Position numbers and translations under genes: made by a program
Notes under the pieces: model-generated
Database searches by the model: none
Told to the model about the DNA's origin: nothing
The model's input: the letters and a program-made list of their open reading frames with translations, nothing else
Shown: positions 7,727 through 23,118 of the stretch, in pieces
Numbering within the stretch: position 1 is the first letter of the stretch
Layout: every line of letters starts with the position of its first letter
NCBI GenBank assembly: GCA_963768655.1
Contig: CAVYIM010000005.1
Location: 32,001 to 96,000 of the forward strand
Source: an uncultured Chloroflexia bacterium
Lineage (GTDB): Bacteria; Chloroflexota; Limnocylindria; Limnocylindrales; CSP1-4
DNA length: 64,000 nucleotides
Reading direction: 5' to 3'

Positions 7727-7792
7727 CCGAGCTCGGCGCCTTGGCACGTGCACGTGTCGCAGACGGATGGCCGTGGGCGGCTATGGACAGTG

Positions 7793-7823
7793 TGGTGGAA
7801 GGAGACTGGTCAGTATGCGAACC
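7793..7823 (-). repeat. Site B, array-distal copy: tRNA-3'-end-like motif
   Basis: Minus strand GGTTCGCATACTGACCAGTCTCCTTCCACCA; recurs at 9284, 16054, 17444, 20792. Confidence 0.85.
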
Positions 7824-7914
7824 AGCCTGGGGGCTCAATCCGGCGAACGCTGACCGTTATGAGAGTCACTCCGGCGCCAGCTGTCGCCCGCTCGCCTGAG
7901 GTCAGAACTGGGAG

Positions 7915-9186
7915 CTAGGGCCAGTACAGCTCGGCAGATGTCAGCCCGTCACCGACAATCATGACGCGCCCATCCTCCAGTTCGGCCGCATACGTGTAGC
8001 CCGGATACTCTTCGAGCATTGGTGCGGTCTTCTTGAACGTGCCAGTCACTGGGTCGTAGAGCTCGGCGGAATTGAGCGGCGTCGGTGGATTGTCGTCACT
8101 AAAGCCCGCCGCGACCAGGACCGAGCCGTTCTTCAGCAGGCAGGCGACCTGATCGCTTCGGCCGGTAACCATCGATCCGGTCGGGCTGAACTTGCCGCTC
8201 GCCGGGTCGTAGATCTCGGCGCTGGCCAACCCTACGCTATCGGCGTTCTCGCCTCCCGCGATCAGGACCCGACCATCGGGTAGCAGGGTGGCCGTGTGAT
8301 AGGCCCGTGCGGTGGTCATCGATCCTGTCGCGCTGAATTTGCCGCTCGTCGGGTCGTAGATCTCGGCGCTGGCCAGGTACTTGAGGTTGCCGTTGTCCTC
8401 GTCTCCGCCGACGATCAGGACCCGTCCGTCGGGCAGCAGGGTCGCGCTCTGGTTCTCTCGGCCAGTGATGAGCGAGCCGGTCGAGCTGAACTTGCCGGTT
8501 GACGGGTCATACAGCTCCGCCGAGCGCAGGAACACCTCGTCATCCTCGTTGTTCGCTCCGTGCACGCCCCCAACGACTAGGACCCTGCCGTCTTTGAGGG
8601 TCGTGGCCGTGTAGGGCGCCAAGAACCACTGGCCCTCCTCGGCCGCCCTATCCCCGTCGACCATCCGCCCGGCCAGGCTGAACTTGCCGCTCGTTGGGTC
8701 GTAGATCTCGGGGGCCGAGTCGGGAGATGCCCCGGTCACGAGCACTCGGCCATCGTTGAGCGGAGTCAGGACCTCGCCGACTCCTCCGGGTAAAAGCGAT
8801 CCGGTCAGGCTGAACGTGTTGCTCTTGGGATCGTACAGCTCGACGGCGTTCGATACGGGCCCATACTGAGGATCGGTTGGCCCATCGAGGACGAGGACTC
8901 GACCATCGGGCAGCAGGGCCGCCCTGAGGCTCTGATGGGTCGCCAGAAAGGGAGCCGCGAGCGTGAACACGCCGCTCGGGGTCGTGGGCGACGGTGTGGG
9001 AGTTGGCGCCAACGTCGGGCGTAGGCTGGCCGTCGGGCTCACGGCGGGGCTGGTCCTCAAGCTCGGGCCCGGAGATGGTGTTGCTGGGCTGCCGCCGCAG
9101 CCAGCAACGGCCAGCGCGAGGGTTAGCCCGGCGAATGCCCGCGCTGTGGAGCTGCCACCCAGAACGATCCGCGGACTGGCTCTCAC
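7915..9186 (-). CDS. Kelch-repeat beta-propeller lipoprotein K9
   Basis: GTG start after GAGGGAG RBS; LAVAGC lipobox; P/S/T linker; repeats TGSM..AR..TATLL.DGRVLI.GG..SAE.YDP; ends SAELYWP. Confidence 0.88.
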   Translation of the reverse strand: MRASPRIVLGGSSTARAFAGLTLALAVAGCGGSPATPSPGPSLRTSPAVSPTASLRPTLAPTPTPSPTTPSGVFTLAAPFLATHQSLRAALLPDGRVLVLDGPTDPQYGPVSNAVELYDPKSNTFSLTGSLLPGGVGEVLTPLNDGRVLVTGASPDSAPEIYDPTSGKFSLAGRMVDGDRAAEEGQWFLAPYTATTLKDGRVLVVGGVHGANNEDDEVFLRSAELYDPSTGKFSSTGSLITGRENQSATLLPDGRVLIVGGDEDNGNLKYLASAEIYDPTSGKFSATGSMTTARAYHTATLLPDGRVLIAGGENADSVGLASAEIYDPASGKFSPTGSMVTGRSDQVACLLKNGSVLVAAGFSDDNPPTPLNSAELYDPVTGTFKKTAPMLEEYPGYTYAAELEDGRVMIVGDGLTSAELYWP

Positions 9187-9222
9187 GCTCTGTCTCCCTC
9201 TGCCATCGGTACGAACCAGGAT

Positions 9223-9246
9223 GACGGATCGAGGGAGCGCGCGTGA
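9223..9246 (-). promoter_or_regulatory. Putative ECF-sigma promoter (TCAC-N16-CGTC) of K9; equivalent copies precede all nine Kelch genes
   Basis: Same motif and 16-nt spacer at 10763-10786, 12417-12440, 14154-14177, 15891-15914, 17411-17434 (GCAC variant), 18876-18899, 20733-20756, 22267-22290. Confidence 0.65.
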
Positions 9247-9283
9247 TGTCACGGCGGGCGGCAGCGACCGAACGGGAAGGACG

Positions 9284-9313
9284 TGGTGGAGGAGACCGGG
9301 CAGTATGCGAACC
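9284..9313 (-). repeat. Site B copy between K8 and K9
   Basis: + strand tggtggaggagaccgggcagtatgcgaacc. Confidence 0.85.
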
Positions 9314-9492
9314 GCATCCTCGGGCTGGTCCGACTATCGCTGGACCTCTCGCGGCGCAGCGGCAAGAGTGGGCCTACGTGCTTGGCCGACTGTCGCAAGA
9401 GCGAGGCGGCCGCCATCTGACAACAGGCTGGCGACTATCCGAGTTCCCAGGGCCTCGGAGTCCGCGCCAGCGCAGAGGAAGGTCCGCGCAGT

Positions 9493-10725
9493 CTAGGGCC
9501 TGTAGAGCTCGCAAGAGGTGAAGTCACCGCCACCACCGGTAACAAGTACCTCGCCATCTGCGAGCAGGGTCGCGGTGAAAGCCTGCCGCGGTGAGTGCAT
9601 CGAGCCAGTGGCGCTAAACGTGCCCGTGGCTGGATCGAACAGCTCCGCCGTTGCCAGGCCGTCGACCGGGTTGTCGTCGTTGATGCCGCCCGCCACCAGC
9701 ACTTTCCCGTTTGGAAGCAGGGCGGCCACGTCATCGGCTCGGGCCGTCGCCATCGATCCGGTAGGCGCGAACGAGTTGGTACTGGGGTCGAAGATCTCGG
9801 CGGACAAGGAATACAGACCGGTCAGATAGCTGAAGCCACCGGCGATCAGCACGCGGCCATCCCGAAGCAAGGTTGCGGTGTCCTGCTCGCGCTCGACAGT
9901 CATGTTCCCCGTGGGGCTGAACCTGCCAGTTCGAGGATCGTAGATCTCGCCCGTCGCGACGGTGGTCGCGGTTCCGGACTGAGGATCTCCACACGGTCCC
10001 CCGCCCGTGATTAGGACTCGCCCGTCCTGCAGCACCGTGGCCGTGGCGCCAGCACGCGCGGCCTCCATAGAGCCGGTGAAAGTGAACTTGTTCGACCTAG
10101 GATCGAATAGCTCCGCGGATGCCGTCAGGCAGTGGCCCGGACGCATGTCTCCGCCCCCGGCTATCAGAACGCGCCCGTCCTGAAGCAGGGCCACGGCGGC
10201 CTCGGACCGGTCGATGAGCGGCCTCACCGCAGCGAATTTGCCCGTGGCTGGATCGTAGATCTCGGCGCCCGTGTCCGTGGCCACGTGGGGTTCGTCCGGA
10301 TCCGCGGCACCGATGACAAGGACTCTGCCATCGAGCAGCGTTACCGCTGCCGGTTGCGTCCGGTAGTGCGAAAGTGAGCCGGTCGTGGTGAACGTCCCAG
10401 TCGAGGGGTCGTAGATCTCCGCTACCACACCACTTCCCACGACAAGGACTCGACCGTCACGGAGCATCGCCGCCGCATGCTGGACGCGGGGCTCGTGCAT
10501 TGAGCCGGTGAGCGTGAAGATTCCGTGGGCAGGAGTCGGCGAGAACGTGGGCGTCGAGGGCGAAGTAGGTTCGGCGCTCATCCTAGACGTAGGGCTGGAC
10601 GCAGGGCTCGTCGTCGGGCTCGGGATCGACGAGGGCAAGGCCGGGCTGCCTCCGCAACCGGCGACCGCCAGGACGAGGACTGCGGCGCGAAGGGGCCGCC
10701 CTGGCGAGCCAAGACCCACTCTCAC
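9493..10725 (-). CDS. Kelch-repeat beta-propeller lipoprotein K8
   Basis: GTG start after GGGAG; LAVAGC lipobox; Kelch repeats; N-terminus identical to K1. Confidence 0.88.
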   Translation of the reverse strand: MRVGLGSPGRPLRAAVLVLAVAGCGGSPALPSSIPSPTTSPASSPTSRMSAEPTSPSTPTFSPTPAHGIFTLTGSMHEPRVQHAAAMLRDGRVLVVGSGVVAEIYDPSTGTFTTTGSLSHYRTQPAAVTLLDGRVLVIGAADPDEPHVATDTGAEIYDPATGKFAAVRPLIDRSEAAVALLQDGRVLIAGGGDMRPGHCLTASAELFDPRSNKFTFTGSMEAARAGATATVLQDGRVLITGGGPCGDPQSGTATTVATGEIYDPRTGRFSPTGNMTVEREQDTATLLRDGRVLIAGGFSYLTGLYSLSAEIFDPSTNSFAPTGSMATARADDVAALLPNGKVLVAGGINDDNPVDGLATAELFDPATGTFSATGSMHSPRQAFTATLLADGEVLVTGGGGDFTSCELYRP

Positions 10726-10827
10726 CCTCTGTCTCCCACTGCCTTCGGACTGAATGCAGGATGACGCATCCAGGAAGGGCACGTGACGTCACTGGGTAGT
10801 GTCGACCGACGGGCCGAGGAGACGGTG

Positions 10828-10868
10828 TGGGCGAGGTCGGGGTCGAACCGACACGCCGCTTACGCGGC
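10828..10868 (-). repeat. Site A: exact 41-bp copy of tRNA-Leu 3' half (att-like)
   Basis: Identical to 22332-22372 (variable arm, T-arm, acceptor 3' strand). Confidence 0.92.
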
Positions 10869-10963
10869 CAGCCCGGGGATGCTCTATCCAGTCCCTCGTG
10901 GCGGGCGATGCAAAATCGGCACTGTTAGCGTGTGAGTCGAACCCCGAGGAAGCCCAACGCAGC

Positions 10964-11100
10964 CTAGGCCGGTACAGCTCCGCCGAGGTGAGAACGATGC
11001 CGTCGAGGGCCTCGCGTCCAGGGATGAGAACCCGGCCGTCGGCGATCAGCGTGGCGGTCTGGTAGGCGCGCATGTCCTCATCGAGCCTGTCGGGTTCAAG
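10964..11100 (-). pseudogene. Orphan terminal Kelch blade fragment
   Basis: PTGSM/(shift)/RAYQTATLIADGRVLIPGREALDGIVLTSAELYRP; no signal peptide or promoter motif. Confidence 0.75.
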
Positions 11101-11109
11101 CACCGCCCG

Positions 11110-12379
11110 TCAAGGTTTGAACAGCTCGGCGGAAGAGAAGGCTTCCTGACCGTCGCCTATGCCTCCCGCGATCAAAACGGTGCCGTCGGGCAGCAGGGTA
11201 GCCGTCTGATCGCTCCGGGCCTCGATCATCGAGCCGATCATGTGAAAGCCGGTTGCTGGGTCATATAGACCGGCCGAGTTCGCAGCACCGAGCCCGGTGC
11301 TTTCTGGAGAATTGAGGTTGCCACCCTCGAAGAGTACGCGGCCATCGGCGAGAAGAGTGGCGGTGGGACCGGACCATTGGTATGGTGTGGAGATCGATCC
11401 GGACATCGTGACCGAATTCTGTCGCGGGATCGTACGTGACCAGGTAGTCGTCGACACACAAGAGAACGCGACCGTCCTTGAGCACGGTGGCCGTGTCGGG
11501 CACTCCGTCGGCGGTCGGGATCACGGGCGGGAGCGAGAGTGAGATCGAGGTGGACTTGGCGCTGGCGGTGTCGTACAACTCCGCGTCAGGACCGCCGATC
11601 GTTCCGCCGATCACCAGGACTTTGCCATTGGGCAGGAGAGTCGCAGTGGCGCTGTCGTAGAAGTTCAGTAGCGAGCCATCGAGCGTGAACTTGCCGGTCG
11701 CCGGGTCGTACATCTCAGCTCGGGTTTCACCGCCATTGAGCATCAGGACGCGCCCGTCGGGCAGGAGAATCGCGCTGGCATCGGCGCGACCAACGGACAT
11801 CGATCCCGTGGGGGAGAACTTGCCCGTCGCCGGGTCGTACAGCTCGGCCGACGCAAGCGGGTCTGTTCCCGCCGTCACAGGACCGGGGGTGCACCCGCTC
11901 TTCCCAAGGCAGCCATAGCCACCGGCGATCAGGACGCGACCATCCGCCAGCAGCGTGGCAGTGGCATGGGAGCGAGCTGTCCTCATAGAGCCCGTGGGGG
12001 TGAACTGGCCGGTGCTCGGGTCGTACAGCTCTGCGGACGAGACGACCTCGTCAAACGACGCGGTCTGCACGTCGCCTCCTCCGGCGATGAGGACCTTGCC
12101 GTCCCGGAGCAGTGTGGCGGTGGCATCCATACGTGCGTCGTGCATTCTGCCGGTGGCGACGAACGTCGGAGTCGGTGTGGGAGTGGGGTTCGGGGTCGGC
12201 ATGGGCTTCCGGATCGGCGTGGCCGTGGGCGTCGAAGTGGAGCTGGTAGTCGGACTCAGGCTCGGCGAGGGCGAGGCCGGGCTTCCGCCGCACCCGGCGA
12301 CGGCCAGCACGAGAGCCACCGCGGCGAATGCCCGCCCTGTCGAGCCGCGGACCCTGTCGAGCCCCGGACTGGCCCTCAC
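11110..12379 (-). pseudogene. Kelch-repeat lipoprotein K7, frameshifted
   Basis: 5' part identical to K5/K6; one extra base near 11416-11419 splits it into ORFs 11261-12379 and 11110-11457; second frame ends SAELFKP. Confidence 0.8.
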
Positions 12380-12505
12380 GCTCTGCCTCCCTCTGTCATC
12401 GAAACCACTGCAGGATGACGCATCGGGGAAGCGCGCGTGATGCCACAGGATGGTGGCGTTGGCGGAGAGCGAAACGAGAATCGGCGGAGCTACCCCAGGC
12501 GATAT

Positions 12506-12580
12506 GGTCTATGCGCGACGGCCTGGCGCTCCCTCAGGACTGGCACCATCTCGGTTCACGCTCAGTTCGGAGAGACGGTG
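12506..12580 (-). repeat. Element C, ~75-bp conserved spacer next to site A (or the hybrid site)
   Basis: ggtctatgcgcgacggcctggcgc..ctggcaccatctcggttcacgctcagttcggagag; also at 14243, 15980, 19046. Confidence 0.85.
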
Positions 12581-12621
12581 TGGGCGAGGTCGGGGTCGAA
12601 CCGACACGCCGCTTACGCGGC
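12581..12621 (-). repeat. Site A: exact copy of tRNA-Leu 3' half
   Basis: Identical to 22332-22372. Confidence 0.92.
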
Positions 12622-12716
12622 CAGCCCGGGGATGCTCTATCCGGCCCCTCGTGGCGGGCGATGCAGAATCGGCCCTGTTAGCGTGTGAGTCGAACCCCGA
12701 GTAAGCCCAACGCAGC

Positions 12717-12854
12717 CTAAGGCCAGTACAGCTCCGCCGAGGCGAGAACGATACCGTCGAGGGCCTCGCCTCCAGAGATGAGAACCGGCCCATCGGCCAG
12801 CAGCGTGGCGGTCCGGTAGGCGCGCGGCCGGTCATCGAACCTGTCGGTTTCAGG
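12717..12854 (-). pseudogene. Orphan terminal Kelch blade fragment
   Basis: LKPTGSMT/(shift)/RAYRTATLLADGPVLISGGEALDGIVLASAELYWP*. Confidence 0.75.
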
Positions 12855-12865
12855 CGCCCCGCCCA

Positions 12866-14116
12866 TCAGGGTTTGAACAGTTCGGCAGACGAGAAGGCTT
12901 CCTGACCGTCGCCTATGCCTCCCGCGATCAAGACGGTGCCGTCAGGCAGCAGGGTTGCCGTCTGATCGCTCCGGGCCTCGATCATCGAGCCGATCATGTG
13001 AAAGCCATTGGCCGGGTCGTACACTCCGGCCAACCGGACGGCGGCTCCAGAGAGGTCGCGACCTCCCTCGAAGAGGACGCGCCCATCGGGGAGAGGTGTG
13101 GCGGTGGAAGCGGACCACGCGAGCGGGGGGGAGATCGACCCGGACATTGTGACCGAGCCTGTCGCCGGATCGAACGTGACCAGGTAGTCGTAGGCACTCA
13201 AGAGTACGCGGCCATCCTTGAGCAGCGTAGCCGTGTCGGGTGCTCCCCAGGTGGTCGGGATCACGGACGGGAGCGCGAATGAGATCGAGGTGGACTTGGC
13301 GCTGGCCGGATCGAACAGATCCGCTCTTGGGACGCTGTCATCGGCGATGACCAGGACCTGGCCATTGGGCAGGAGAGTCGCCGTGGCGCTGTCGTAGAAG
13401 TTCAGTAGCGAGCCATCGAGCGTGAACTTGCCGGTCGCCGGGTCGTACATCTCAGTTCGTCTGTCACCGCCATTGAGCATCAGGACGCGCCCGTCGGGCA
13501 GGAGAATCGCGCTGGCATCGGCGCGACCAACGGACATCGATCCCGTGGGGGAGAACTTGCCCGTCGCCGGGTCGTACAGCTCGGCCGACGCAAGCGGGTC
13601 TGTTCCCGCCGTCACAGGACCGGGGGTGCACCCGCTCTTCCCAAGGCAGCCATAGCCACCGGCGATCAGGACGCGACCATCCGCCAGCAGCGTGGCAGTG
13701 GCATGGGAGCGAGCTGTCCTCATAGAGCCCGTGGGGGTGAACTGGCCGGTGCTCGGGTCGTACAGCTCTGCGGACGAGACGACCTCGTCAAACGACGCGG
13801 TCTGCACGTCGCCTCCTCCGGCGATGAGGACCTTGCCGTCCCGGAGCAGTGTGGCGGTGGCATCCATACGTGCGTCGTGCATTCTGCCGGTGGCGACGAA
13901 CGTCGGAGTCGGTGTGGGAGTGGGGTTCGGGGTCGGCATGGGCTTCCGGATCGGCGTGGCCGTGGGCGTCGAAGTGGAGCTGGTAGTCGGACTCAGGCTC
14001 GGCGAGGGCGAGGCCGGGCTTCCGCCGCACCCGGCGACGGCCAGCACGAGAGCCACCGCGGCGAATGCCCGCCCTGTCGAGCCGCGGACCCTGTCGAGCC
14101 CCGGACTGGCCCTCAC
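12866..14116 (-). CDS. Kelch-repeat beta-propeller lipoprotein K6
   Basis: 416 aa, LAVAGC lipobox, Kelch repeats, ends SAELFKP; identical to K5. Confidence 0.9.
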   Translation of the reverse strand: MRASPGLDRVRGSTGRAFAAVALVLAVAGCGGSPASPSPSLSPTTSSTSTPTATPIRKPMPTPNPTPTPTPTFVATGRMHDARMDATATLLRDGKVLIAGGGDVQTASFDEVVSSAELYDPSTGQFTPTGSMRTARSHATATLLADGRVLIAGGYGCLGKSGCTPGPVTAGTDPLASAELYDPATGKFSPTGSMSVGRADASAILLPDGRVLMLNGGDRRTEMYDPATGKFTLDGSLLNFYDSATATLLPNGQVLVIADDSVPRADLFDPASAKSTSISFALPSVIPTTWGAPDTATLLKDGRVLLSAYDYLVTFDPATGSVTMSGSISPPLAWSASTATPLPDGRVLFEGGRDLSGAAVRLAGVYDPANGFHMIGSMIEARSDQTATLLPDGTVLIAGGIGDGQEAFSSAELFKP

Positions 14117-14317
14117 GCTCTGCCTCCCTCTGTCATCGAAACCACTGCAGGATGACGCATCGGGGAAGCGCGCGTGATGCCACAGGATGGTGGCGTTGGC
14201 GGAGAGCGAAACGAGAATCGGCGGAGCTACCCCAGGCGATATGGTCTATGCGCGACGGCCTGGCGCTCCCTCAGGACTGGCACCATCTCGGTTCACGCTC
14301 AGTTCGGAGAGACGGTG

Positions 14318-14358
14318 TGGGCGAGGTCGGGGTCGAACCGACACGCCGCTTACGCGGC
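14318..14358 (-). repeat. Site A: exact copy of tRNA-Leu 3' half
   Basis: Identical to 22332-22372. Confidence 0.92.
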
Positions 14359-14453
14359 CAGCCCGGGGATGCTCTATCCGGCCCCTCGTGGCGGGCGATG
14401 CAAAATCGGCCCTGTTAGCGTGTGAGTCGAACCCCGAGTAAGCCCAACGCAGC

Positions 14454-14591
14454 CTAAGGCCAGTACAGCTCCGCCGAGGCGAGAACGATACCGTCGAGGG
14501 CCTCGCCTCCAGAGATGAGAACCGGCCCATCGGCCAGCAGCGTGGCGGTCCGGTAGGCGCGCGGCCGGTCATCGAACCTGTCGGTTTCAGG
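14454..14591 (-). pseudogene. Orphan terminal Kelch blade fragment
   Basis: Copy of 12717-12854. Confidence 0.75.
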
Positions 14592-14602
14592 CGCCCCGCC
14601 CA

Positions 14603-15853
14603 TCAGGGTTTGAACAGTTCGGCAGACGAGAAGGCTTCCTGACCGTCGCCTATGCCTCCCGCGATCAAGACGGTGCCGTCAGGCAGCAGGGTTGCCGTCT
14701 GATCGCTCCGGGCCTCGATCATCGAGCCGATCATGTGAAAGCCATTGGCCGGGTCGTACACTCCGGCCAACCGGACGGCGGCTCCAGAGAGGTCGCGACC
14801 TCCCTCGAAGAGGACGCGCCCATCGGGGAGAGGTGTGGCGGTGGAAGCGGACCACGCGAGCGGGGGGGAGATCGACCCGGACATTGTGACCGAGCCTGTC
14901 GCCGGATCGAACGTGACCAGGTAGTCGTAGGCACTCAAGAGTACGCGGCCATCCTTGAGCAGCGTAGCCGTGTCGGGTGCTCCCCAGGTGGTCGGGATCA
15001 CGGACGGGAGCGCGAATGAGATCGAGGTGGACTTGGCGCTGGCCGGATCGAACAGATCCGCTCTTGGGACGCTGTCATCGGCGATGACCAGGACCTGGCC
15101 ATTGGGCAGGAGAGTCGCCGTGGCGCTGTCGTAGAAGTTCAGTAGCGAGCCATCGAGCGTGAACTTGCCGGTCGCCGGGTCGTACATCTCAGTTCGTCTG
15201 TCACCGCCATTGAGCATCAGGACGCGCCCGTCGGGCAGGAGAATCGCGCTGGCATCGGCGCGACCAACGGACATCGATCCCGTGGGGGAGAACTTGCCCG
15301 TCGCCGGGTCGTACAGCTCGGCCGACGCAAGCGGGTCTGTTCCCGCCGTCACAGGACCGGGGGTGCACCCGCTCTTCCCAAGGCAGCCATAGCCACCGGC
15401 GATCAGGACGCGACCATCCGCCAGCAGCGTGGCAGTGGCATGGGAGCGAGCTGTCCTCATAGAGCCCGTGGGGGTGAACTGGCCGGTGCTCGGGTCGTAC
15501 AGCTCTGCGGACGAGACGACCTCGTCAAACGACGCGGTCTGCACGTCGCCTCCTCCGGCGATGAGGACCTTGCCGTCCCGGAGCAGTGTGGCGGTGGCAT
15601 CCATACGTGCGTCGTGCATTCTGCCGGTGGCGACGAACGTCGGAGTCGGTGTGGGAGTGGGGTTCGGGGTCGGCATGGGCTTCCGGATCGGCGTGGCCGT
15701 GGGCGTCGAAGTGGAGCTGGTAGTCGGACTCAGGCTCGGCGAGGGCGAGGCCGGGCTTCCGCCGCACCCGGCGACGGCCAGCACGAGAGCCACCGCGGCG
15801 AATGCCCGCCCTGTCGAGCCGCGGACCCTGTCGAGCCCCGGACTGGCCCTCAC
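14603..15853 (-). CDS. Kelch-repeat beta-propeller lipoprotein K5
   Basis: 416 aa, identical to K6. Confidence 0.9.
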   Translation of the reverse strand: MRASPGLDRVRGSTGRAFAAVALVLAVAGCGGSPASPSPSLSPTTSSTSTPTATPIRKPMPTPNPTPTPTPTFVATGRMHDARMDATATLLRDGKVLIAGGGDVQTASFDEVVSSAELYDPSTGQFTPTGSMRTARSHATATLLADGRVLIAGGYGCLGKSGCTPGPVTAGTDPLASAELYDPATGKFSPTGSMSVGRADASAILLPDGRVLMLNGGDRRTEMYDPATGKFTLDGSLLNFYDSATATLLPNGQVLVIADDSVPRADLFDPASAKSTSISFALPSVIPTTWGAPDTATLLKDGRVLLSAYDYLVTFDPATGSVTMSGSISPPLAWSASTATPLPDGRVLFEGGRDLSGAAVRLAGVYDPANGFHMIGSMIEARSDQTATLLPDGTVLIAGGIGDGQEAFSSAELFKP

Positions 15854-16053
15854 GCTCTGCCTCCCTCTGTCATCGAAACCACTGCAGGATGACGCATCGG
15901 GGAAGCGCGCGTGATGCCACAGGATGGTGGCGTTGGCGGAGAGCGAAACGAGAATCGGCGGAGCTACCCCAGGCGATATGGTCTATGCGCGACGGCCTGG
16001 CGCTCCCTCAGGACTGGCACCATCTCGGTTCACGCTCAGTTCGGAGAGACGGT

Positions 16054-16081
16054 GTGGAGGAGACTGGTCAGTATGCGAACC
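16054..16081 (-). repeat. Site B copy fused to element C (hybrid site)
   Basis: + strand gagacggtgtgg|aggagactggtcagtatgcgaacc. Confidence 0.85.
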
Positions 16082-16203
16082 GGACGGCCGGAATAGTCCG
16101 GCGTCCGTTAGCGGTCAGCCGATCCCGCCGCTCGGCATCATCGACGGCATGAGCACGAAGAACAGTGAGCCACCCCGCAACCCGAGCTTCGACCCAAAGC
16201 CAG

Positions 16204-17373
16204 CTACGGCCAGTACAACTCTGCCGAAGGGCCGCCGTCCAGTGCTCCACCGGCGATCAGGACTCGCCCATCGGTGAGCAGGGTGGCGGTCTGGTTGAAC
16301 CGGGCAATGGTCATCGATCCTGTCGGCGTGAACGTGCCCGTGACAGGATCGTACAGCTCGGCCGACGTAAGGGCCACCGAGTCGTCGTTCGCTCCTCCAA
16401 CCACGAGAACCATGCCATCGGCGAGCAGGGTGGCGGTGAAGTACTGGCGCGCATCGTGCATCGATCCGGTCGGGCTGAACTTGCCGGCGGCAGGATCGTA
16501 CAGCTCGGCCGAGGCGAGGGTCCCGGAGTCGTCGCTGCCTCCGGCGACCAGAACCTGGCCATCGGTGAGCAAGGTGGCGGTGAAGTCTGTCCGTGGCGAG
16601 TGCATCGATCCCGTCGGGCTGAACTTGCCCGTCGCCGGGTTGTAGATCTCGGCCGACGCCCAGTACTGTCCATCCACGGCTCCCTCGCCGCCGACAACCA
16701 GGACCCGACCGTCCGCCAATCGTGTGGCCGTGAAGTCCAGGCGCCCCGTCATCATCGACCCAGTCGGGGTGAACTTGCCAGTGGCCGGGTCGTATAGGTC
16801 GGCCGTGTTGACTAGATCACCTCCTCCTACGATCAGGACGTGACCGTTCTGCAGCAAGATGGCTCTTTGTCCGCCGTGCACCATCGATCCCGCTGGGCTG
16901 AACGTGCCTGTCGCGGGATCGTATAGCTCGGCCGTGTTGTCGATGCCGCCCGCGATCAGCACTCGGCCGTCCGAGAGCAGTGTGGCCGTGTGGTAGGCCC
17001 GAGCGGTCGTCATCGATCCCGTCGCACTGAACTTGCCGGTGGCCGGGTCATACAGCTCCGCGGTGGCCACCGCACTGTTGACCATGCCCCCGGCGACGAG
17101 GACCCGGCCATTGCCCAACAGAGTCGCGGTTTCGAAGGTCCGGTTGGTGCTCATCGATCCAGTGACAATGAACGTGCCGTGGGCGGGCGTGGGTGAAGGT
17201 GCGGGAGTTGGCGCGAACGTCCGGCTCGGGCCGGCCGTCGGGCCCACGGCGGGGCTCGTCGTCGGGCTCTGGCTCGGCGAGGGCGAGGCCGGGCTGCCCA
17301 CACAGCCTGCGACGGCCCAGGCGAGGACCGCTACGGCAAGCGGCCGTCTCACCGAACGACGCCTGACTCCCAT
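16204..17373 (-). CDS. Kelch-repeat beta-propeller lipoprotein K4
   Basis: ATG after GAGGGAG; AVAGC lipobox; very regular Kelch repeats; ends SAELYWP. Confidence 0.9.
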   Translation of the reverse strand: MGVRRRSVRRPLAVAVLAWAVAGCVGSPASPSPSQSPTTSPAVGPTAGPSRTFAPTPAPSPTPAHGTFIVTGSMSTNRTFETATLLGNGRVLVAGGMVNSAVATAELYDPATGKFSATGSMTTARAYHTATLLSDGRVLIAGGIDNTAELYDPATGTFSPAGSMVHGGQRAILLQNGHVLIVGGGDLVNTADLYDPATGKFTPTGSMMTGRLDFTATRLADGRVLVVGGEGAVDGQYWASAEIYNPATGKFSPTGSMHSPRTDFTATLLTDGQVLVAGGSDDSGTLASAELYDPAAGKFSPTGSMHDARQYFTATLLADGMVLVVGGANDDSVALTSAELYDPVTGTFTPTGSMTIARFNQTATLLTDGRVLIAGGALDGGPSAELYWP

Positions 17374-17443
17374 GCGCCGTCTCCCTCTGCCATTGGAACG
17401 AACTGAGGATGACGCATCGTAGCAAAGCAGGTGCCGCTCAAAG

Positions 17444-17607
17444 TGGTGGAGGAGACTGGTCAGTATGCGAACCAGCCTGGGGGCTCAATCCGGCGAACGC
17501 TGGCCGTCGTGCGAGCCACTCCGGCGCCAGCTCTCGCCCGCTCGCCTGAGGTGAGAACTGGAAGATGGGGCCAATAGAGCTCGGCAGATGTCAGCCCGTC
17601 ACTGACA
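17444..17607 (-). repeat. Site B plus flank and last codons of a K9-like gene (scar)
   Basis: Close copy of 7793-7957 including DGLTSAELYWP coding end. Confidence 0.85.
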
Positions 17608-17733
17608 GCCCGACGAGCATGCGCCACCTGGGACTCCGCATCTTCCCGACTCGTGCCAGCCTCATCCATCTCGTCGACACGGTCCTACCGACTCGGATGA
17701 CAAGTCGCGCTAGCCAGGCGTCGACGCTCGGAG

Positions 17734-18882
17734 CTAGCCAGTCAGCTTGTACACCATCGCCTGCCTCGTGCCCGGTGCGTCCTGATAGTCGGTCGATCCA
17801 CCAATCACGAGGACGCGGCCGTCGGCCAGCAGGGTCTGTATCTTGGTATCGCCGCCTGCTCCTCCACCTCCGATGACGCTGAAGGACTCCGAGCTCGGGT
17901 CATACAGGAAGGCGTCAATACTGCCAATGATCAGTACTCGGCCGTCTGACACAGCCGTCGCGCTTTCGGTCCCGTCTCCTGCGGGCTGCGAAATCGATCG
18001 AAATCGACGAGTCGACGGGTCGAAGAGCTCGGCCGAACGTGGCACAAAGACGCCCAGCTGGTTCGCGGTATCAGCCCAACCGCCGACCACGAGAACCTGC
18101 CGGTTGGGCAACAAGATAGCCGTGTGATCTGATCGCGCCTCTACCAGACTCCCGGTCGCGCTAAATGTTCCCGTCGCCGTGTCGTAGATCTCAGCGGAGG
18201 CGATCCTAGCTCCGTCGGTGGACACGCCTCCAGCGATCAACACTCCGACGCCCGGGATCAGAGTGGCGGTTTGGAGCTCTCGGGCCTGGTTCATCGACCC
18301 GGTCAGAGCGAACGCGCCAGTCGCCGGATCGTACAGTTCGGCCGTCGGCGAGCCGTGCGTACCGGTCTGCCCGGAACCACCTGCGATGAGCACTCGGCCG
18401 TCTGGCAAGAGCGTGGCGGTCCCGTTCCAGTGCGGCTCATGCATCGACCCGGTGGCGGCAAATGTGCTAGACCTGGGATCGAACAGCTCGGCGGTCCCAA
18501 GCTCGTCGCCCCCGGCAATCAGCACGCGGCCGTCCGAGAGGCGAACGGCCATCGCCTCTGAACGCGCCTGAACCATCGTTCCAGTCAGGGTGAAGGTGCC
18601 CGTCTTGGGGTCGAACAACTCTGCGGTGCCCTTGCCATCGCCACCCGCCACCAGCACTCGACCGTCCTGGAGCAGAGTCGCGGTCGGCCACCATCGAGCG
18701 ACGTTCATCTGCGTATGCGTGACCGCGAGCGATGGCCCGGTCGCGCCGCAGCCTGCAAGGACCAGGATCACCGCAAGCGCCATTCCGGCAGTAAGGACGT
18801 GGCGGCTCAGAGTGACGTGGGTCCTACGATCCGTGTTTGTGCCTCCTCCCTCTGACATCGGCGCGAACACAGGATGACGCAT
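17734..18882 (-). CDS. Kelch-repeat beta-propeller lipoprotein K3 (divergent; start uncertain)
   Basis: LVLAGC lipobox, Kelch repeats, short linker, atypical C-terminus QAMVYKLTG. Confidence 0.82.
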   Translation of the reverse strand: MRHPVFAPMSEGGGTNTDRRTHVTLSRHVLTAGMALAVILVLAGCGATGPSLAVTHTQMNVARWWPTATLLQDGRVLVAGGDGKGTAELFDPKTGTFTLTGTMVQARSEAMAVRLSDGRVLIAGGDELGTAELFDPRSSTFAATGSMHEPHWNGTATLLPDGRVLIAGGSGQTGTHGSPTAELYDPATGAFALTGSMNQARELQTATLIPGVGVLIAGGVSTDGARIASAEIYDTATGTFSATGSLVEARSDHTAILLPNRQVLVVGGWADTANQLGVFVPRSAELFDPSTRRFRSISQPAGDGTESATAVSDGRVLIIGSIDAFLYDPSSESFSVIGGGGAGGDTKIQTLLADGRVLVIGGSTDYQDAPGTRQAMVYKLTG

Positions 18883-19122
18883 CGAAGCTAGGAGCGTGAG
18901 GCTTCAGGGGGTTGGTTGGTCCTCGCCCGATAGGCGGGCGAACCGCCCGGCTGGAACGGCGGGAAACTGCCGCGCAGGATCACGGCCTACCGTACTGCGC
19001 AGTCAGGTCGCTTCCCCCCATCTATGGATATCATCAGCTCGATAAGGTCTATGCGCGACGGCCTGGCGCCCCCCCCCAGGACTGGCACCATCTCGGTTCA
19101 CGCTCAGTTCGGAGAGGCGGTG

Positions 19123-19162
19123 TGGCGAGGTCGGGGTCGAACCGACACGCCGCTTACGCGGC
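19123..19162 (-). repeat. Site A: tRNA-Leu 3' half copy with 1-nt deletion
   Basis: tggcgaggtcggggtcgaaccgacacgccgcttacgcggc. Confidence 0.9.
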
Positions 19163-19261
19163 CAGCCCGGGGATGCTCTATCCGGCCCCTCGTGCCAGGC
19201 GATGCAGAATCGGCACTGTTAGCGTGTGAGTCAAAGCCCGGTCTCCGAGGCCCAACGCAGG

Positions 19262-19399
19262 CTACGGCCAGTACAGCTCCGCCGAGGTGAGAACGATACC
19301 GTCGAGGGCCTCGCGTCCAGGGATGAGAACCCGGCCGTCGGCGATCAGCGTGGCGGTCTGGTAGGCGCGCATGTCCTCATCGAGCCTGTCGGGTTCAAG
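19262..19399 (-). pseudogene. Orphan terminal Kelch blade fragment
   Basis: RAYQTATLIADGRVLIPGREALDGIVLTSAELYWP*; nearly identical to 10964-11100. Confidence 0.75.
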
Positions 19400-19408
19400 C
19401 ACCGCCCG

Positions 19409-20695
19409 TCAAGGTTTGAACAGCTCGGCGGACGAGAGAATGCTTACCTGGTCCGAGGTGCCTCCCGCGATCAAGACTGTGCCGTTGGCCAGCAGTGTTG
19501 CCGTGTGATCAGCTCGCGGCTGTGGCATGGAGACTGTGTCCTGGTAGCCAGAGGCTGGGTCGTACAGGCCTGCCGCATCGGTAGTGTCTTGGGAAACAGC
19601 GGTTACGGCATAGCCCCCTGCAAAGAACACACGCCCATCCGAGAGGAGCGTTGGCGTAGTCAACCAGTCGCCAGGAGCGGCGATCGATCCCGACTGCCTG
19701 AGCGAGCCAGTCACTAGATCGTAGGTCACAAGGTTGTCGTTTATACACAGCAGAACGTGGCCATCCCTGAGCGGAATGAGCGTGTATGGAGTGGGTGGAT
19801 AGACACCGGCGTCGGGATCGAGCGAGATAGAACTCGACTTGCCAGTGGCTGGATCGAACAGTTCAGCGGCCGGGCCATCAGCAACGGTGGGGCCAACTAT
19901 CAGGACCTTCCCGTCGGGCAGCACGGCCGCCGAGGTGGCGGCTCCGATACCCACGCCACTGACGTTGGGGAATACGTCCACATAGTCGTTCTGTAGCGAA
20001 CCGTCGCGCGTGAACTTGCCAGTAGTCGGGTCATACAGCTCAACCAGTTTCGACCCGCCCAGCAGTATCAGGACCTGCCCATCGGGCAGGAGCAGGGAAT
20101 TGGCACCGGAGCGAGCGACGGCCATCAAACCGGTGCGAGTGAACTCGCCAGTCGTGGAGTCATACAGCTCGGCAGACGCGAGAGGGCCTTCGCCGTCGGC
20201 TGTGTCGAGCGCACAGCTCCTGGTGACGCAGCCATAGCCGCCGGCCATCAGGACCCGCCCGTCGGGCAGGAGGATGGCAGCGGCGTCGGAGCGACCAGTC
20301 GCCATGGAGCCTGTGGGCGTGAACTTGCCAGTGGTCGGGTCGTACAGCTCGGCCGATGCGAGGACTGGTGCGTGCAGGAAGGGAACAGAAGGCATCGCCC
20401 GGGCTCCTCCGGCGATGAGGACCTCGCCGTCCCGCAGCAGTGTGGCGGTGGCGTAGATCCGGGGGGCGCTCATGCTGCCGGTGACGACGAACGTCGGGGC
20501 TGGCGTGGGCGACGGTGTCGGCGTGGGCGTGGGACTCGGCGACAATGTGGCGCTCGGGCGGGCAGTCGGGCTGGGGCTCGGCCAGGGCGAGGCCGGGCTT
20601 CCCCCGCATCCGGCGATGGCCAGCACGAGGACCAATGCGGCGCATGCCCGGCCCGTCGAGCCGCGGACCCTATCAATCCCCGGACTGGCTCTCAC
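19409..20695 (-). CDS. Kelch-repeat beta-propeller lipoprotein K2
   Basis: GTG start after GAGGGAGG; LAIAGC lipobox; Kelch repeats; ends SAELFKP. Confidence 0.88.
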   Translation of the reverse strand: MRASPGIDRVRGSTGRACAALVLVLAIAGCGGSPASPWPSPSPTARPSATLSPSPTPTPTPSPTPAPTFVVTGSMSAPRIYATATLLRDGEVLIAGGARAMPSVPFLHAPVLASAELYDPTTGKFTPTGSMATGRSDAAAILLPDGRVLMAGGYGCVTRSCALDTADGEGPLASAELYDSTTGEFTRTGLMAVARSGANSLLLPDGQVLILLGGSKLVELYDPTTGKFTRDGSLQNDYVDVFPNVSGVGIGAATSAAVLPDGKVLIVGPTVADGPAAELFDPATGKSSSISLDPDAGVYPPTPYTLIPLRDGHVLLCINDNLVTYDLVTGSLRQSGSIAAPGDWLTTPTLLSDGRVFFAGGYAVTAVSQDTTDAAGLYDPASGYQDTVSMPQPRADHTATLLANGTVLIAGGTSDQVSILSSAELFKP

Positions 20696-20791
20696 GCTCT
20701 GCCTCCCTCTGTCATCGAAACCACTGCAGGATGACGCATCGGGGAAGCGTGCGTGATGCCACAGGGCGTCGGTCGAAAGTGAAACCAGAAG

Positions 20792-20821
20792 TGGTGGAGG
20801 AGACCGGGCAGTATGCGAACC
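20792..20821 (-). repeat. Site B copy between K1 and K2
   Basis: tggtggaggagaccgggcagtatgcgaacc, followed by the agcctgggggctcaatccggcgaacgc arm shared with the 7793 and 17444 copies. Confidence 0.85.
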
Positions 20822-21002
20822 AGCCTGGGGGCTCAATCCGGCGAACGCAGGCCGTTGTGCGAGCGCCATCTGACAACCGTCTTCGTTCCGACTGCTGCAT
20901 CTGATCTACGTCGACTACATCGCCGGTAGGTTCCGAGCGCAGTGGCGTGTGGCGAACGGCTGGTCAATTCGCCGACTGTTCGCCAACGCAGAAGCCGGTA
21001 GC

Positions 21003-22229
21003 CTACGGCCGGTAGAGCTCGCAGACGGCACTGTCGATTGCTCCGCCGGCCACGAGTACGTCGCCATCTGAAAGCAAGGTTGCTGTGAAGAACGACCGGG
21101 GCCAGTGCATAGATCCGGTGGCGGAGAACGTGCCAGTGGTCGGATCGAACAGCTCAGCGCTTGCTACGCCGTCTTCCTGGTTGTCGGCATTGTTGCCTCC
21201 AGCCACCAGCACCTTCCCGTCCGGAAGCAGGACGGCCACGTCGTCGGATCGGGCCGTTCCCATCGATCCAGTCGGTACGAATCGGTTGGTGCTGGGGTCG
21301 AAGAGCTCGGCGGACGAGTAATACTGGCCACTCAGGTAACTGAAGCCGCCGGCGATCAGCACGCGGCCGTCCGGAAGGAGCGTTGCTGTGTCTTCCTCGC
21401 GTTCGACACTCATGTTGCCTGCGGGACTGAACGTGCCGGTTCGAGGGTCGTAGATCTCCGCCGTGGCATAAGTAGTGGCCGTCCCGGATTGCGGATCTCC
21501 GCACGATCCTCCACCGGCGACAAGAACTCGGCCGTCGCTGAGTGCAGTGGCGGTGGCCCCCGCGCGCGCAGCCCTCATCGAGCCTGTCATCGTGAACTTG
21601 CCAGACGTAGGGTCGTACAGCTCTGCAGACGCCACGCAATCCTCTGAGCGAGAGCGGACATCCGCGCCACCAGCTACGAGGACGCGTCCGTCCTGCAGCA
21701 GGGCCACCGCCGGACCAGAGCGGTCCACCAGCGGTCTAGCCGGGATGAACTTGCCCGTGGCCGGATCGTAGAGCTCGGCGCCAGTGTCCTTGGCGTCGAC
21801 GTTGTCCGCAGCGCCCACGACTAGGACTCGGCCATCGAGCAGGGTTACTGCCGAGGGCTCCGTGCGGTCGTGCGAAAGTGAGCCGGTCGTGGTGAACGTC
21901 CCGGTCGAGGGGTCGTAGATCTCGGCGACCACGCCGCTCGCCACGAGAAGTACCCGCCCGTCACGGAGCATCGCCGCTGCGTGCTGCGCGCGGAGATCAC
22001 GCATCGAGCCGGTGAGCGTGAAGGTTCCGCGGGCAGGAGTCGGCGAGAACGTGGGCGTCGAGGGCGAAGTAGGTTCGGCGCTCATCCTAGACGTAGGGCT
22101 GGACGCAGGGCTCGTCGTCGGGCTCGGGATCGACGAGGGCAAGGCCGGGCTGCCTCCGCAACCGGCGACCGCCAGGACGAGGACTGCGGCGCGAAGGGGC
22201 CGCCCTGGCGAGCCAAGACCCACTCTCAC
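21003..22229 (-). CDS. Kelch-repeat beta-propeller lipoprotein K1 (tRNA-proximal)
   Basis: GTG start; LAVAGC lipobox; Kelch repeats; paralog of K8. Confidence 0.88.
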   Translation of the reverse strand: MRVGLGSPGRPLRAAVLVLAVAGCGGSPALPSSIPSPTTSPASSPTSRMSAEPTSPSTPTFSPTPARGTFTLTGSMRDLRAQHAAAMLRDGRVLLVASGVVAEIYDPSTGTFTTTGSLSHDRTEPSAVTLLDGRVLVVGAADNVDAKDTGAELYDPATGKFIPARPLVDRSGPAVALLQDGRVLVAGGADVRSRSEDCVASAELYDPTSGKFTMTGSMRAARAGATATALSDGRVLVAGGGSCGDPQSGTATTYATAEIYDPRTGTFSPAGNMSVEREEDTATLLPDGRVLIAGGFSYLSGQYYSSAELFDPSTNRFVPTGSMGTARSDDVAVLLPDGKVLVAGGNNADNQEDGVASAELFDPTTGTFSATGSMHWPRSFFTATLLSDGDVLVAGGAIDSAVCELYRP

Positions 22230-22331
22230 CCTCTGTCTCCCACTGCCTTCGGACTGAATGCAGGATGACGCATCCAGGAAGGGCACGTGACGTCACTGGG
22301 TAGTGTCGACCGACGGGCCGAGGAGACGGTG

Positions 22332-22416
22332 TGGGCGAGGTCGGGGTCGAACCGACACGCCGCTTACGCGGCACCAGCTCCTAAGGCTGGCGCGTCTGCC
22401 ATTCCGCCACTCGCCC
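22332..22416 (-). tRNA. tRNA-Leu (anticodon TAG)
   Basis: GGGCGAG acceptor stem, D-loop GGAATGGCAGAC, anticodon stem CCAGC/GCTGG with loop CTTAGGA, long variable arm, GGTTCGA T-loop; CCA not encoded. Confidence 0.96.
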
Positions 22417-22485
22417 GTGGCCCAAGAGTCTAGCGGGCGCGGCAATGCCGCAATGCGCGACCGCCGCCCGCGGCGCGGAGCCGGC

Positions 22486-23118
22486 TCAGAGGTGGCGGAG
22501 CCGGTTGCGGCGCATGCCGGGTCGCCGCGACCCGGGAGCCGGTGAGGCCTTTCCGGGCCCGGCGGCTGTCTCGGCCAAATGCTCGGCCGTGTGCTTCTCG
22601 CGTCGAGCCCGAATCCGCTCCGTGGCGGCCGCGAAGCTGCTCGCGTCTGGGCTGAACAGCTCATTGGCCAGCCGCTTACCCGCCTCGGCGGTCACCGGCC
22701 GGAGGATGTTGCCGCCCAGCTCGGAGATCGTGCCTCTCAGGTCGCGCGCCTCGCGCTCGGGGCGGCTCTTCTCGAGGTAGGCGCCAAACTCGCGCTCGAG
22801 CAGACCGCGGACCTGCTCGCCGTCCTCGCCCAGCGAGCGCAGCGCCTTGTCGATCTGCTTTGGCAGCATCGACTTGGGCAGATCCGCCCTCGGGCCGAGA
22901 ATCGCCCGCCGAACGGCGCGATAGGTCCGCTTCGGCCCACCCAGGACGATGAAGGCCGTGCCGGCGGCGAGCGCGGCTGTCTTGCCAGGCGAGCGCCGGA
23001 TCTTGGCCGGGAAGTCGACCGCCGCGCGGCCGGCCGCCTCGAGCCCTGTGACCTCCTCGCGCAGGAGTTCGCGGCGGGCTACGACTTCCGCCCGAGCGGC
23101 ATCTGTTCGCGCACCCAC
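22486..23118 (-). CDS. Hypothetical protein (DUF3618-like N-terminus), overlapping upstream membrane gene
   Basis: GTG start overlapping the end of 23079-24008; coiled N-terminus then one hydrophobic segment. Confidence 0.6.
   Translation of the reverse strand: MGARTDAARAEVVARRELLREEVTGLEAAGRAAVDFPAKIRRSPGKTAALAAGTAFIVLGGPKRTYRAVRRAILGPRADLPKSMLPKQIDKALRSLGEDGEQVRGLLEREFGAYLEKSRPEREARDLRGTISELGGNILRPVTAEAGKRLANELFSPDASSFAAATERIRARREKHTAEHLAETAAGPGKASPAPGSRRPGMRRNRLRHL

Follow-up and report, generated by a model that had tools for sequence, protein, structure and literature searches.

A tRNA-Leu-anchored array of Kelch genes in an uncultured Limnocylindrales bacterium as a probable stack of miniature, integrase-less cassettes

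The genome of an uncultured Chloroflexia bacterium of the order Limnocylindrales (GenBank assembly GCA_963768655.1; 3.37 Mb in 9 contigs) carries, next to a tRNA-Leu(TAG) gene, an array of nine open reading frames (ORFs) for Kelch-repeat proteins, the organization and origin of which are considered here. The array lies in a stretch of 64,000 nucleotides (nt) of contig CAVYIM010000005.1 (positions 32,001 to 96,000), which is referred to as the window and to which all coordinates apply unless another contig is named; its GC content is high (0.64–0.73). The array-bearing genome is coded G000 and the comparison genomes G004, G005, G006, G007, G012, G024, and G046. A model-made reading of the letters of this window (hereafter the sequence-only reading) had proposed that single-gene cassettes are captured and shuffled at tRNA-like sites by a recombinase acting in trans, as a candidate new diversification system.

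Genes and repeated sites of the array

The tRNA-Leu(TAG) gene lies at 22331–22416 on the minus strand (Rfam tRNA score 55.6 bits). Nine ORFs of 372–486 amino acids (aa), K1 to K9, follow on the same strand, head to tail, at 7915–22286, up to a convergent gene of the PGA_cap family (6137–7726, plus strand) that belongs to the native flank. Between the ORFs lie repeated sites of three kinds (A, B, and C) as well as leftover pieces of Kelch genes (orphans and one scar), giving, as read from the tRNA, the order tRNA-K1-B-K2-orphan-A-C-K3-scar-B-K4-B/C-K5-orphan-A-C-K6-orphan-A-C-K7-orphan-A-K8-B-K9-B. This order, already stated in the sequence-only reading, was reproduced by mapping of sites, arms, and genes. 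Site A repeats the final 42 nt of the tRNA gene without change at 10827–10868, 12580–12621, and 14317–14358, while a fourth copy (19122–19162) comprises 41 nt, with one base missing; the five B cores are found at 7795–7823, 9286–9313, 16054–16081, 17446–17473, and 20794–20821. Neither A and B nor the associated arms of about 100 nt occur anywhere in the 3.37-Mb genome outside the array, a confinement that is not due to chance. An Rfam scan of 7000–23000 returned only the tRNA and one sub-threshold miRNA match, and A, B, and C matched no family. The tRNA-Leu gene of G000 and all its fragments end in GCCCAC followed by ACCG (22331–22334 and the four A copies) and hence encode no CCA; CCA is encoded in 18 of the 19 tRNA-Leu(TAG) genes examined in relatives.

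All array features lie on the minus strand. Starting from the tRNA, the anchor of the locus (attB or attL, with 22331–22372 as the presumed att core), the first gene, K1 (21003–22286), is probably over-extended as listed, its likely start being a GTG after a GGGAGAC ribosome-binding motif. It is followed by a B site (20794–20863, core plus partial B arm) and K2 (19409–20869), a member of the K5 clade whose ORF is over-extended at its 5′ end. Behind K2 come an orphan (19260–19408), that is, the last blade of another Kelch gene, then a right arm (19163–19272) with the 41-nt A core (together 19122–19272), and the C element preceding K3 (19040–19121; 93 % identical to the other C copies). K3 (17734–18882) is followed by the scar of a K9-type gene end and then by a B arm (17474–17573) and a B core (17446–17473); the whole stretch (17446–17607) shares 91.6 % identity with 7792–7957. 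Next comes K4 (16204–17373), behind which a B core is fused to C (15903–16081; B at 16054–16081, C at 15903–16053), the joint reading CCAC followed directly by ACCG. K5 (14603–15853) is succeeded by an orphan blade (14455–14602), a right arm (14359–14464), and an A core (14317–14358; together 14317–14602), and by a C element before K6 (14166–14316) that continues into the 5′ region typical of the gene family. K6 (12866–14116), identical to K5, is followed by an orphan blade, a right arm (12622–12727), and an A core (12580–12621; together 12580–12865), and then by C with the family 5′ region before K7 (12429–12579). K7 (11110–12379) is a frameshifted K5-type gene whose K5-like C-terminus is out of frame (11110–11260); behind its orphan blade and right arm (10869–10973), the A core at 10827–10868 (together 10827–11109) continues with the same 44-nt flank as the real tRNA. 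K8 (9493–10782), a paralogue of K1 with an overall DNA identity of 81.7 %, is followed by a B core (9286–9313) of the same sequence variant as that at 20794, and K9 (7915–9252) by the B arm and core that form the distal end of the array (7795–7923). The orphan blades end in AELYWP after K2, K5, and K6 and in AELYRP after K7; the scar after K3 is shorter. In total, the array holds seven distinct intact genes, one duplicate (K5/K6), and one broken copy (K7), so that of the nine variable lipoproteins originally proposed the nine ORFs stand, but two are identical and one is frameshifted.

Kelch families (Kelch_1, Kelch_4, and Kelch_6, the latter with E-values of 1e-14 to 1e-39) were matched in all eight proteins sent to Pfam, a set that left out K6 as identical to K5, and residues 88–359 of K4 align with six-bladed Kelch domains of solved structures, best with KLHL17 (E 4e-28). 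All nine translations, inspected by eye, contain a hydrophobic signal peptide ending in a lipobox of the type [VIL]AGC (e.g., VAGC), by which the proteins are predicted to be lipid-anchored lipoproteins; a Pro/Ser/Thr-rich linker follows the lipobox in eight of them, K3 being the exception. About 20 further Kelch paralogues are dispersed in G000, in which 29 ORFs match at E 1e-25 or better, and relatives of the Kelch genes were found in records of metagenome-assembled genomes titled Candidatus Limnocylindrales or Chloroflexi, with peat, fen, and soil as sources. A quick tree of the Kelch proteins (35 rows, without K6 and the 313-aa fragment C4:530841), which is poorly resolved with 20 of its 32 inner branches unresolved, places the array genes in at least four groups; one well-supported group unites K2, K5/6, and K7 with two dispersed paralogues (C3:689753 and C5:158296) and a gene from the array of G005. 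The GC content at third codon positions is 0.72–0.80 in the array genes, compared with 0.89 in the adjoining PGA_cap gene and 0.75–0.90 in nine dispersed paralogues.

Eight of the nine array genes are preceded by a conserved 5′ block composed of GATGCGTCATC, about 20 nt, a GGGAGG-type ribosome-binding site, and a GTG start codon, the copy before K9 being diverged. The block (GTGGCRTCACG, further on GATGCGTCATCCTG, then the ribosome-binding site) is also found ahead of the dispersed paralogues C3:689753 and C5:158296 and hence belongs to the gene family, not to the array. Each unit had been credited with a promoter motif, of which the conserved block itself stood up to scrutiny but its promoter nature did not, since a scan of the region for the sigma-70 consensus found 0 sites where 1.4 were expected; a terminator scan of the region gave 4 terminator-like sites against 4.6 expected. 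Two further ideas about GATGCGTCATC were discarded, namely that of a palindromic operator (its centre is not palindromic) and that of hairpin formation with GATGAC further downstream (K1 and K4 lack this partner).

tRNA-derived junctions and a related integrase element

The locus was compared in 24 genomes of the genus, and sites, arms, and integrases were searched for in 50 other genus genomes. In the sister species G012, the closest relative with a flank of 86 % identity, a 316-aa tyrosine integrase (L014:14193–15143; PF00589, E 3.8e-25) directly adjoins the tRNA-Leu gene; next come a second integrase, a DnaB-like helicase, and a Dam methylase. Beside PGA_cap, on a separate contig from the tRNA, this genome carries a 42-nt tRNA fragment of the native type, and the T-arm of its tRNA differs from that of the displaced fragment. 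Such an arrangement is the classical attL/attR signature left when an element arrives with a tRNA end of its own and the native end is displaced. Among the sequences of G005, one T-arm type is common to the tRNA and two fragments, and a third fragment has another. The statement that no integrase resides at this site thus holds for G000 but not for G012, where one directly adjoins this tRNA.

In all 14 fragments from 7 genomes, the tRNA-derived part has tRNA position 45 as its first base; here begins the palindromic variable arm, which is a plausible crossover region. The right arm, i.e., the stretch of about 100 nt left of every A, has homologous counterparts at the corresponding place beside A in G012, G005, G004, and G006. 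The C element has two collinear and equally spaced blocks in common with the tRNA–integrase stretch of G012 (local score 27; shuffled sequences 14.2 ± 2.2, with 0 of 500 reaching 27), on the basis of which it is called the left arm. Given that the right arm and C are both homologous to ends of the G012 element, the A–C junction corresponds to right arm–core–left arm, an arrangement that characterizes an attP site or the place where two tandemly integrated elements meet. We accordingly take the A sites to be site-specific recombination junctions of a family of tyrosine-integrase elements targeting tRNA-Leu(TAG), not passenger repeats; that they are recombination sites derived from a tRNA 3′ end had been anticipated, and is supported by the integrase at the same tRNA and by the displaced fragment in G012.

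Between species, the arms are 91–95 % identical, as compared to 71–85 % for neighbouring intergenic DNA and 71–75 % for the cargo genes. For G000 and G012, 82 of 90 positions of the right arm are identical, versus 47 of 66 in the native spacer across the core; for G000 and G046, the values are 88 of 93 for the right arm and 77 of 83 for C, versus 115 of 135 with 30 gap columns for the intergenic DNA upstream of the tRNA. The synonymous divergence (dS) between the latter two genomes amounts to 0.47 for PGA_cap, 0.73 for K4, and 1.07 for K3, and the non-coding arms are thus far less diverged than the synonymous positions of the genes between them. The right arm of G012 is conserved although the gene upstream is not a Kelch gene, which argues for a constraint on the arms themselves.

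These observations bear on an alternative account, according to which one ancient integration left a single attL/attR pair, everything else arose by tandem duplication, unequal crossing-over, and gene conversion, and the arms were retained as promoter, operator, or terminator signals. The occurrence of the 5′ block before two paralogues outside the array and the about 20 further dispersed paralogues are in its favour. It is difficult to reconcile, however, with a right arm that is 91 % conserved beside a non-Kelch gene, with arms far more conserved than the synonymous sites between them, and with T-arm types that differ between tRNA and fragments in both G012 and G005, which requires that foreign DNA entered at the core. 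Taking these points together with those from the relatives and from the array itself (see below), we regard a single ancient integration as unlikely, if still a serious contender.

On the right, the B site ends sharply at CCACCA; on the left, it is bordered by about 60 nt that form a conserved block. Its alignment with the tRNA, over the T-arm and acceptor part, is a loose one that needs a 6-nt insertion and leaves out the variable arm. Next to PGA_cap, at the distal end of the array, B occupies the place that is held by the A core in G012, and the alignment of the native flanks starts right after both cores with small gaps only; the B–C joint at 16054 shows the same boundary as the A–C joints; and the island at tRNA-Leu in G024 also closes with a Kelch gene and a B site behind it. 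By position, B thus seems to play the role of an att core and might constitute a second, diverged right-end type. Its origin may lie in a second right-end type of a related element or in a conserved regulatory block. At the intergenic B sites of six other genomes, the next called gene lies downstream in four, and TTGAxC-like and CATACT blocks are spaced 15 nt apart; a promoter function is hence possible, if unproven, but fails to explain the sharp 3′ boundary at CCACCA. Two other candidates were rejected: none of the 51 tRNAs of G000 has B as its 3′ end (the ends of tRNA-Met and tRNA-Ala(TGC) are vaguely similar only), and the opposite-strand ORFs that would start from the ATG comprise 7–196 aa and are unconserved past the first three residues. 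The description of all unit ends as tRNA-3′-end-like is apt for A, with its copies of 41–42 nt, and applies to B only loosely.

Variation among relatives and remodelling of the array

In G007, the tRNA lies directly beside PGA_cap, which represents the empty state of the locus, and across relatives the number of cassettes is 0, 1–2, 2, at least 4, or 9. The cassette of G004 reads tRNA, C, 5′ block, a K4-like gene, right arm, and A. In G046, two cassettes are located between the tRNA and PGA_cap, first a K4-like and then a K3-like one; as its assembly is interrupted by NN where the 3′ end of the first cassette gene lies (L039 about 11798, G046:C217), this count may be an underestimate. The metagenome contig L125 covers the whole interval between the tRNA and PGA_cap without a break and contains two cassettes. 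K4 has counterparts of 70–71 % identity in the cassettes of G046 and G004, and K3 one of 64 % in that of G046/L125, yet the order of the two types is opposite, with K3 first in G000 and K4 first in G046/L125, which also speaks against a single ancient integration followed by duplication. At least four Kelch genes and at least four tRNA fragments are present in G005. Among the 50 other genus genomes, the right arm was found in seven (in one of them weakly) and C in three; a 19-nt right-arm motif occurs in ten metagenome contigs, eight of which contain cassette modules, and a scan of viral contigs with this motif gave 0 matches. The notion of single-gene cassettes without an integrase was borne out, each unit having both element arms; number and order differ among relatives.

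The same comparison makes it very improbable that misassembly of a repeat-rich region produced the array or its copy number. Admittedly, three tandem units that share long tracts of 100 % identity are hard to assemble, the G046 cassette has the gap mentioned above, and in the sole public run found (X1), short contigs with a depth of about 4 account for 21 % of the sampled words, which is too little to judge or confirm the layout or to judge excision; three joints in the X1 reads, with sides of 21–26 nt at 90 % likeness, are most likely cross-matches between Kelch repeats. However, the genome consists of only 9 contigs, the units differ in defined tracts, and the same cassette design was assembled independently in three other genomes and eight metagenome contigs, among them the uninterrupted L125.

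Some relatives show further peculiarities at this locus. Behind the last A fragment of G005, the Kelch-family 5′ block appears once more (G005:C85, L030 7584–8948), and the next called gene past it encodes a DUF4380 protein, followed by a sugar-utilization cluster; the array of G005 does not end at PGA_cap. In G006, only 815 bp separate the tRNA from A, and this interval includes an inverted 23-nt copy of the tRNA 5′ end (L024 19760–19782). The island of G024 at the same tRNA-Leu (L016, G024:C10:308900-328899) comprises genes for a serine recombinase, an RHS-repeat protein, a Mutator-family transposase, and an rve-type integrase, all of them located ahead of the Kelch gene, the B site, and the native flank. 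Such mixed insertions point to a general insertion hotspot.

Recent exchange between species is indicated by G046 and G004, in which a stretch that begins at the tRNA and takes in about 1.05 kb of the K4-like cassette is 97–100 % identical, as opposed to about 83 % in the flanks (dS 0.14 for K4 versus 0.45 for PGA_cap). This identity reflects recent transfer or recombination between species, with a left limit at the tRNA and a right limit inside the gene, and such a left limit is not what a single ancient integration with subsequent local duplication would lead one to expect. The ratio of non-synonymous to synonymous divergence (dN/dS) is 0.25–0.26 for K3 and K4, compared with 0.20–0.23 for PGA_cap, and the ratio pN/pS among paralogues is 0.28–0.71; taken together, these values give no overall sign of diversifying selection on the cassette genes.

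The youngest layer of the array in G000 bears a different signature. The 1737-nt units 12580–14316 and 14317–16053, which contain the identical genes K6 and K5, differ at 1 base, whereas the second and the third unit of this type are identical for about 800 nt and then only 81–93 % alike. K5 and K7 are identical over the first ~200 codons and then diverge, and K1 and K8 are 100 % identical from the att core through codon 80, followed by a stretch with a synonymous difference (pS) of 0.28–0.71. By these identity patterns, the youngest changes (amplification of a unit, mosaic genes, and orphan gene ends) result from homologous rather than site-specific recombination. Near-identical units with breakpoints untied to the sites, as expected for plain tandem duplication, characterize the youngest layer only; the two units with 1 difference and the mosaic breakpoints inside genes can be counted in favour of a single ancient integration, but plain tandem duplication leaves the att cores, the arms, and the cross-species pattern unexplained. 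Two expectations of the sequence-only reading accordingly came true in part. Cassette number and order do vary among relatives, although much of the recent change, with breakpoints inside genes, reflects plain homologous recombination; and for the supposed diversification by cassette capture there is at least one cassette that moved or recombined recently between G046 and G004, while the newest changes in G000 are due to homologous recombination.

In our view, the locus is probably a tRNA-Leu(TAG) integration hotspot that houses a tandem stack of miniature, integrase-less cassettes, similar to the cis-mobilizable elements (CIMEs) discussed below and remodelled by homologous recombination. A cassette consists of the left arm (C), the family 5′ region with its ribosome-binding site, one Kelch gene, the right arm, and the 42-nt att core. 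In a first step, a tyrosine integrase of the G012 type would recombine the element with the tRNA gene, probably within the palindromic variable arm, whereby the native tRNA end would be displaced and right arm–core–left arm junctions would form between stacked units. These junctions exist and are homologous to the element ends; from them, we infer the act of integration itself. In a second step, the integrase and other element genes would have been lost, or may never have been carried, leaving one-gene cassettes that could presumably be moved only in trans. Thirdly, homologous recombination among cassettes and Kelch repeats amplified the 1737-bp unit, created mosaics, and left orphans, a step that the identity patterns within the array show. 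The net result would be a species-variable repertoire of lipid-anchored, linker-tethered, six-bladed binding proteins.

Several observations weigh against this reading. The G012 element is split over two contigs, and its continuity from attL to attR is a presumption. Internal arm–core–arm junctions could also be produced by unequal crossing-over between two 42-nt cores, and the junction structure alone is hence no proof of repeated integration. The breakpoints between K5 and K7 and between K1 and K8 lie inside genes, not at A or B. The B core is not a displaced native tRNA-Leu end, since its acceptor strand cannot pair with the tRNA 5′ end, and outside G000, B is present in 6 of the 50 other genus genomes at seven sites, six of which are intergenic without a Kelch gene nearby, while the seventh, in G024, follows one. 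Finally, no integrase was found in or beside the array: all 10 PF00589 matches in the genome lie outside C5:39000-54500, and tblastn searches with both G012 integrases gave no match in the array region. The best homologue of the G012 integrase in G000 is only 52 % identical and lies beside tRNA-Gly(CCC), and in the other array-bearing genomes only homologues of 47–54 % identity were detected, where genome completeness of 73–93 % means that absence is not proven. Within the genus, the G012 integrase has no close relative, the next best being 63 % identical. The lack of a cognate integrase in array-bearing genomes would also suit a single ancient integration.

It counts against the idea that the array is a dedicated and still active counterpart of an integron, in which a recombinase from elsewhere or from transient elements takes cassettes out at A and B, inserts them again, and changes their order, thereby varying the surface repertoire. 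The arms, which appear to be under purifying selection, the variation of cassette number and order among species together with the recent interspecies exchange, and the interchangeability of B and A at the same boundary (the B–C joint at 16054 and the B in A's place by PGA_cap) would all be consistent with such activity, as would a one-gene, integrase-less insert at another tRNA of G000, tRNA-Thr(CGT), with two arm motifs like those of the tRNA-Leu arms. On the other hand, no recombinase could be identified in this or the other array-bearing genomes, the dN/dS values of 0.25–0.26 next to 0.20–0.23 for PGA_cap give no overall indication of diversifying selection, K7 is broken and K5/K6 redundant, and the newest changes are explained by homologous recombination. 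An active system of this kind is thus quite improbable, and the recombinase acting in trans that had been postulated for the array found no support, as no integrase for this site turned up in G000 or in the other array-bearing genomes, where the best homologues of the G012 enzyme are 49–54 % identical.

The insert at tRNA-Thr(CGT) (C3:346054-347236, L133) follows the tRNA, is 1.06 kb long, and contains a single ORF of 219 aa without a Pfam family as well as a repeat of the tRNA 3′ part that starts in the anticodon stem. The arm before this repeat includes CGCATAGACC, which is also present in C, and two copies of CACGCTCA, which resembles CACGCTAAC of the right arm. Of the 9 sites of CGCATAGACC in the genome, 4 belong to the array and 1 to the tRNA-Thr insert, and the remaining ones have no connection with a tRNA; the motif is no conclusive marker of related arms. 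Two other tRNA genes of G000, tRNA-Lys(TTT) (C3:510231/526565) and tRNA-Ser(TGA) (C5:506679/519386), are accompanied by a repeat of their 3′ end at a distance of 16.3 kb and 12.7 kb, respectively, each with a PF00589 match beside the tRNA; these duplications look like ordinary integrated islands.

Known systems and biological significance

The closest parallels are found among elements that stack at the 3′ ends of genes. In CIMEs, integration and transfer genes are lost, attL and attR are kept, and elements stack in tandem at the 3′ end of the target gene; the example given comprises relatives of ICESt1 and ICESt3 in Streptococcus thermophilus, with internal chimeric att junctions and an integrase-bearing relative at the same site (PMC5704250). 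The array resembles them in that its units are bounded by att sites holding the tRNA 3′ end (four copies of 41–42 nt), carry neither integrase nor transfer genes (the PF00589 matches all lie elsewhere), and have a related integrase element, that of G012, at the same tRNA, with a right arm of 91–93 % identity and two blocks of the left arm. Unlike CIMEs, the units are only 1.3–1.8 kb long, contain a single gene from one paralogous family, and are stacked up to nine deep; moreover, there is no known conjugative partner, and the host is an uncultured member of the Chloroflexota. The tycheposon islands of Prochlorococcus likewise show anchoring at tRNAs, partial tRNAs, new insertions that push older ones outward, and an accumulation of degenerate elements, the autonomous forms having their own tyrosine recombinase, a small replication module, and mixed cargo (bioRxiv 10.1101/2020.12.28.424599). 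Partial tRNA copies beside the tRNA are a shared feature, and the G012 element, with its integrase and DnaB-like helicase, can be likened to tycheposons by gene content alone; the units of G000, in contrast, have no recombinase or replication module, retain both arms intact, and carry one gene family.

The array is also reminiscent of integrons in its one-gene cassettes of a single orientation, its repeated sites, and its variability among relatives. Integrons and clusters of attC sites lacking integron integrases (CALINs) consist of one-gene cassettes in one orientation, separated by repeated recombination sites, in arrays that vary among relatives; integrons additionally have intI, attI, and a common promoter at one end, and their mostly promoterless cassettes carry attC hairpins. 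The Kelch array differs by the lack of intI (no PF00589 match) or attI beside it, its ends being the tRNA and the PGA_cap gene, by tRNA-derived sites with long arms, and by a separate 5′ region with a ribosome-binding site in each cassette. With ordinary tandem arrays of surface-protein genes, it has near-identical units, mosaic genes, and pseudogene and orphan fragments in common; what sets it apart are the unit borders, which carry att cores and arms that are shared with an integrase element and conserved above neutral expectation. A literature search, which did not extend to supplementary files, found no publication on Kelch arrays in Limnocylindrales or on partial-tRNA cassettes in Chloroflexota, and none on Chloroflexota among the titles listed for CIMEs and tRNA islands. 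It is unusual that the units are reduced to one gene, that nine of them are stacked, all with cargo from a single family, and that the arms are better conserved than synonymous sites. Overall, the array amounts to the familiar stacking of genomic islands at tRNA genes on a miniature scale and is not the new kind of system that had been proposed; it fits decay and tandem accretion at a tRNA attB, as in CIMEs and tycheposon-type islands.

A more far-reaching scenario, which we put forward only tentatively and regard as possible though doubtful, is that soil Chloroflexota of the Limnocylindria type run an integron-like, tRNA-anchored system without a resident integrase, in which one-gene cassettes, each with two arms as a conserved attachment module, would be inserted, excised, and reordered in trans by the integrases of transient elements; at tRNA-Leu(TAG), the system would serve to assemble and reshuffle the Kelch repertoire, B being a second, non-tRNA core. 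If the cassettes are still mobilized, they would offer uncultured soil bacteria a compact way to collect and exchange single accessory genes at tRNAs without a recombinase of its own for each unit, and a concrete route by which the surface-protein repertoire could vary between close species. The arms, conserved above synonymous sites, are candidate integrase binding sites. Even as a fossil, the locus provides a natural series from an empty site via an integrase element and a remnant to arrays of two, at least four, and nine genes, along which tRNA islands can be followed as they decay into minimal cassettes that homologous recombination then reshapes.

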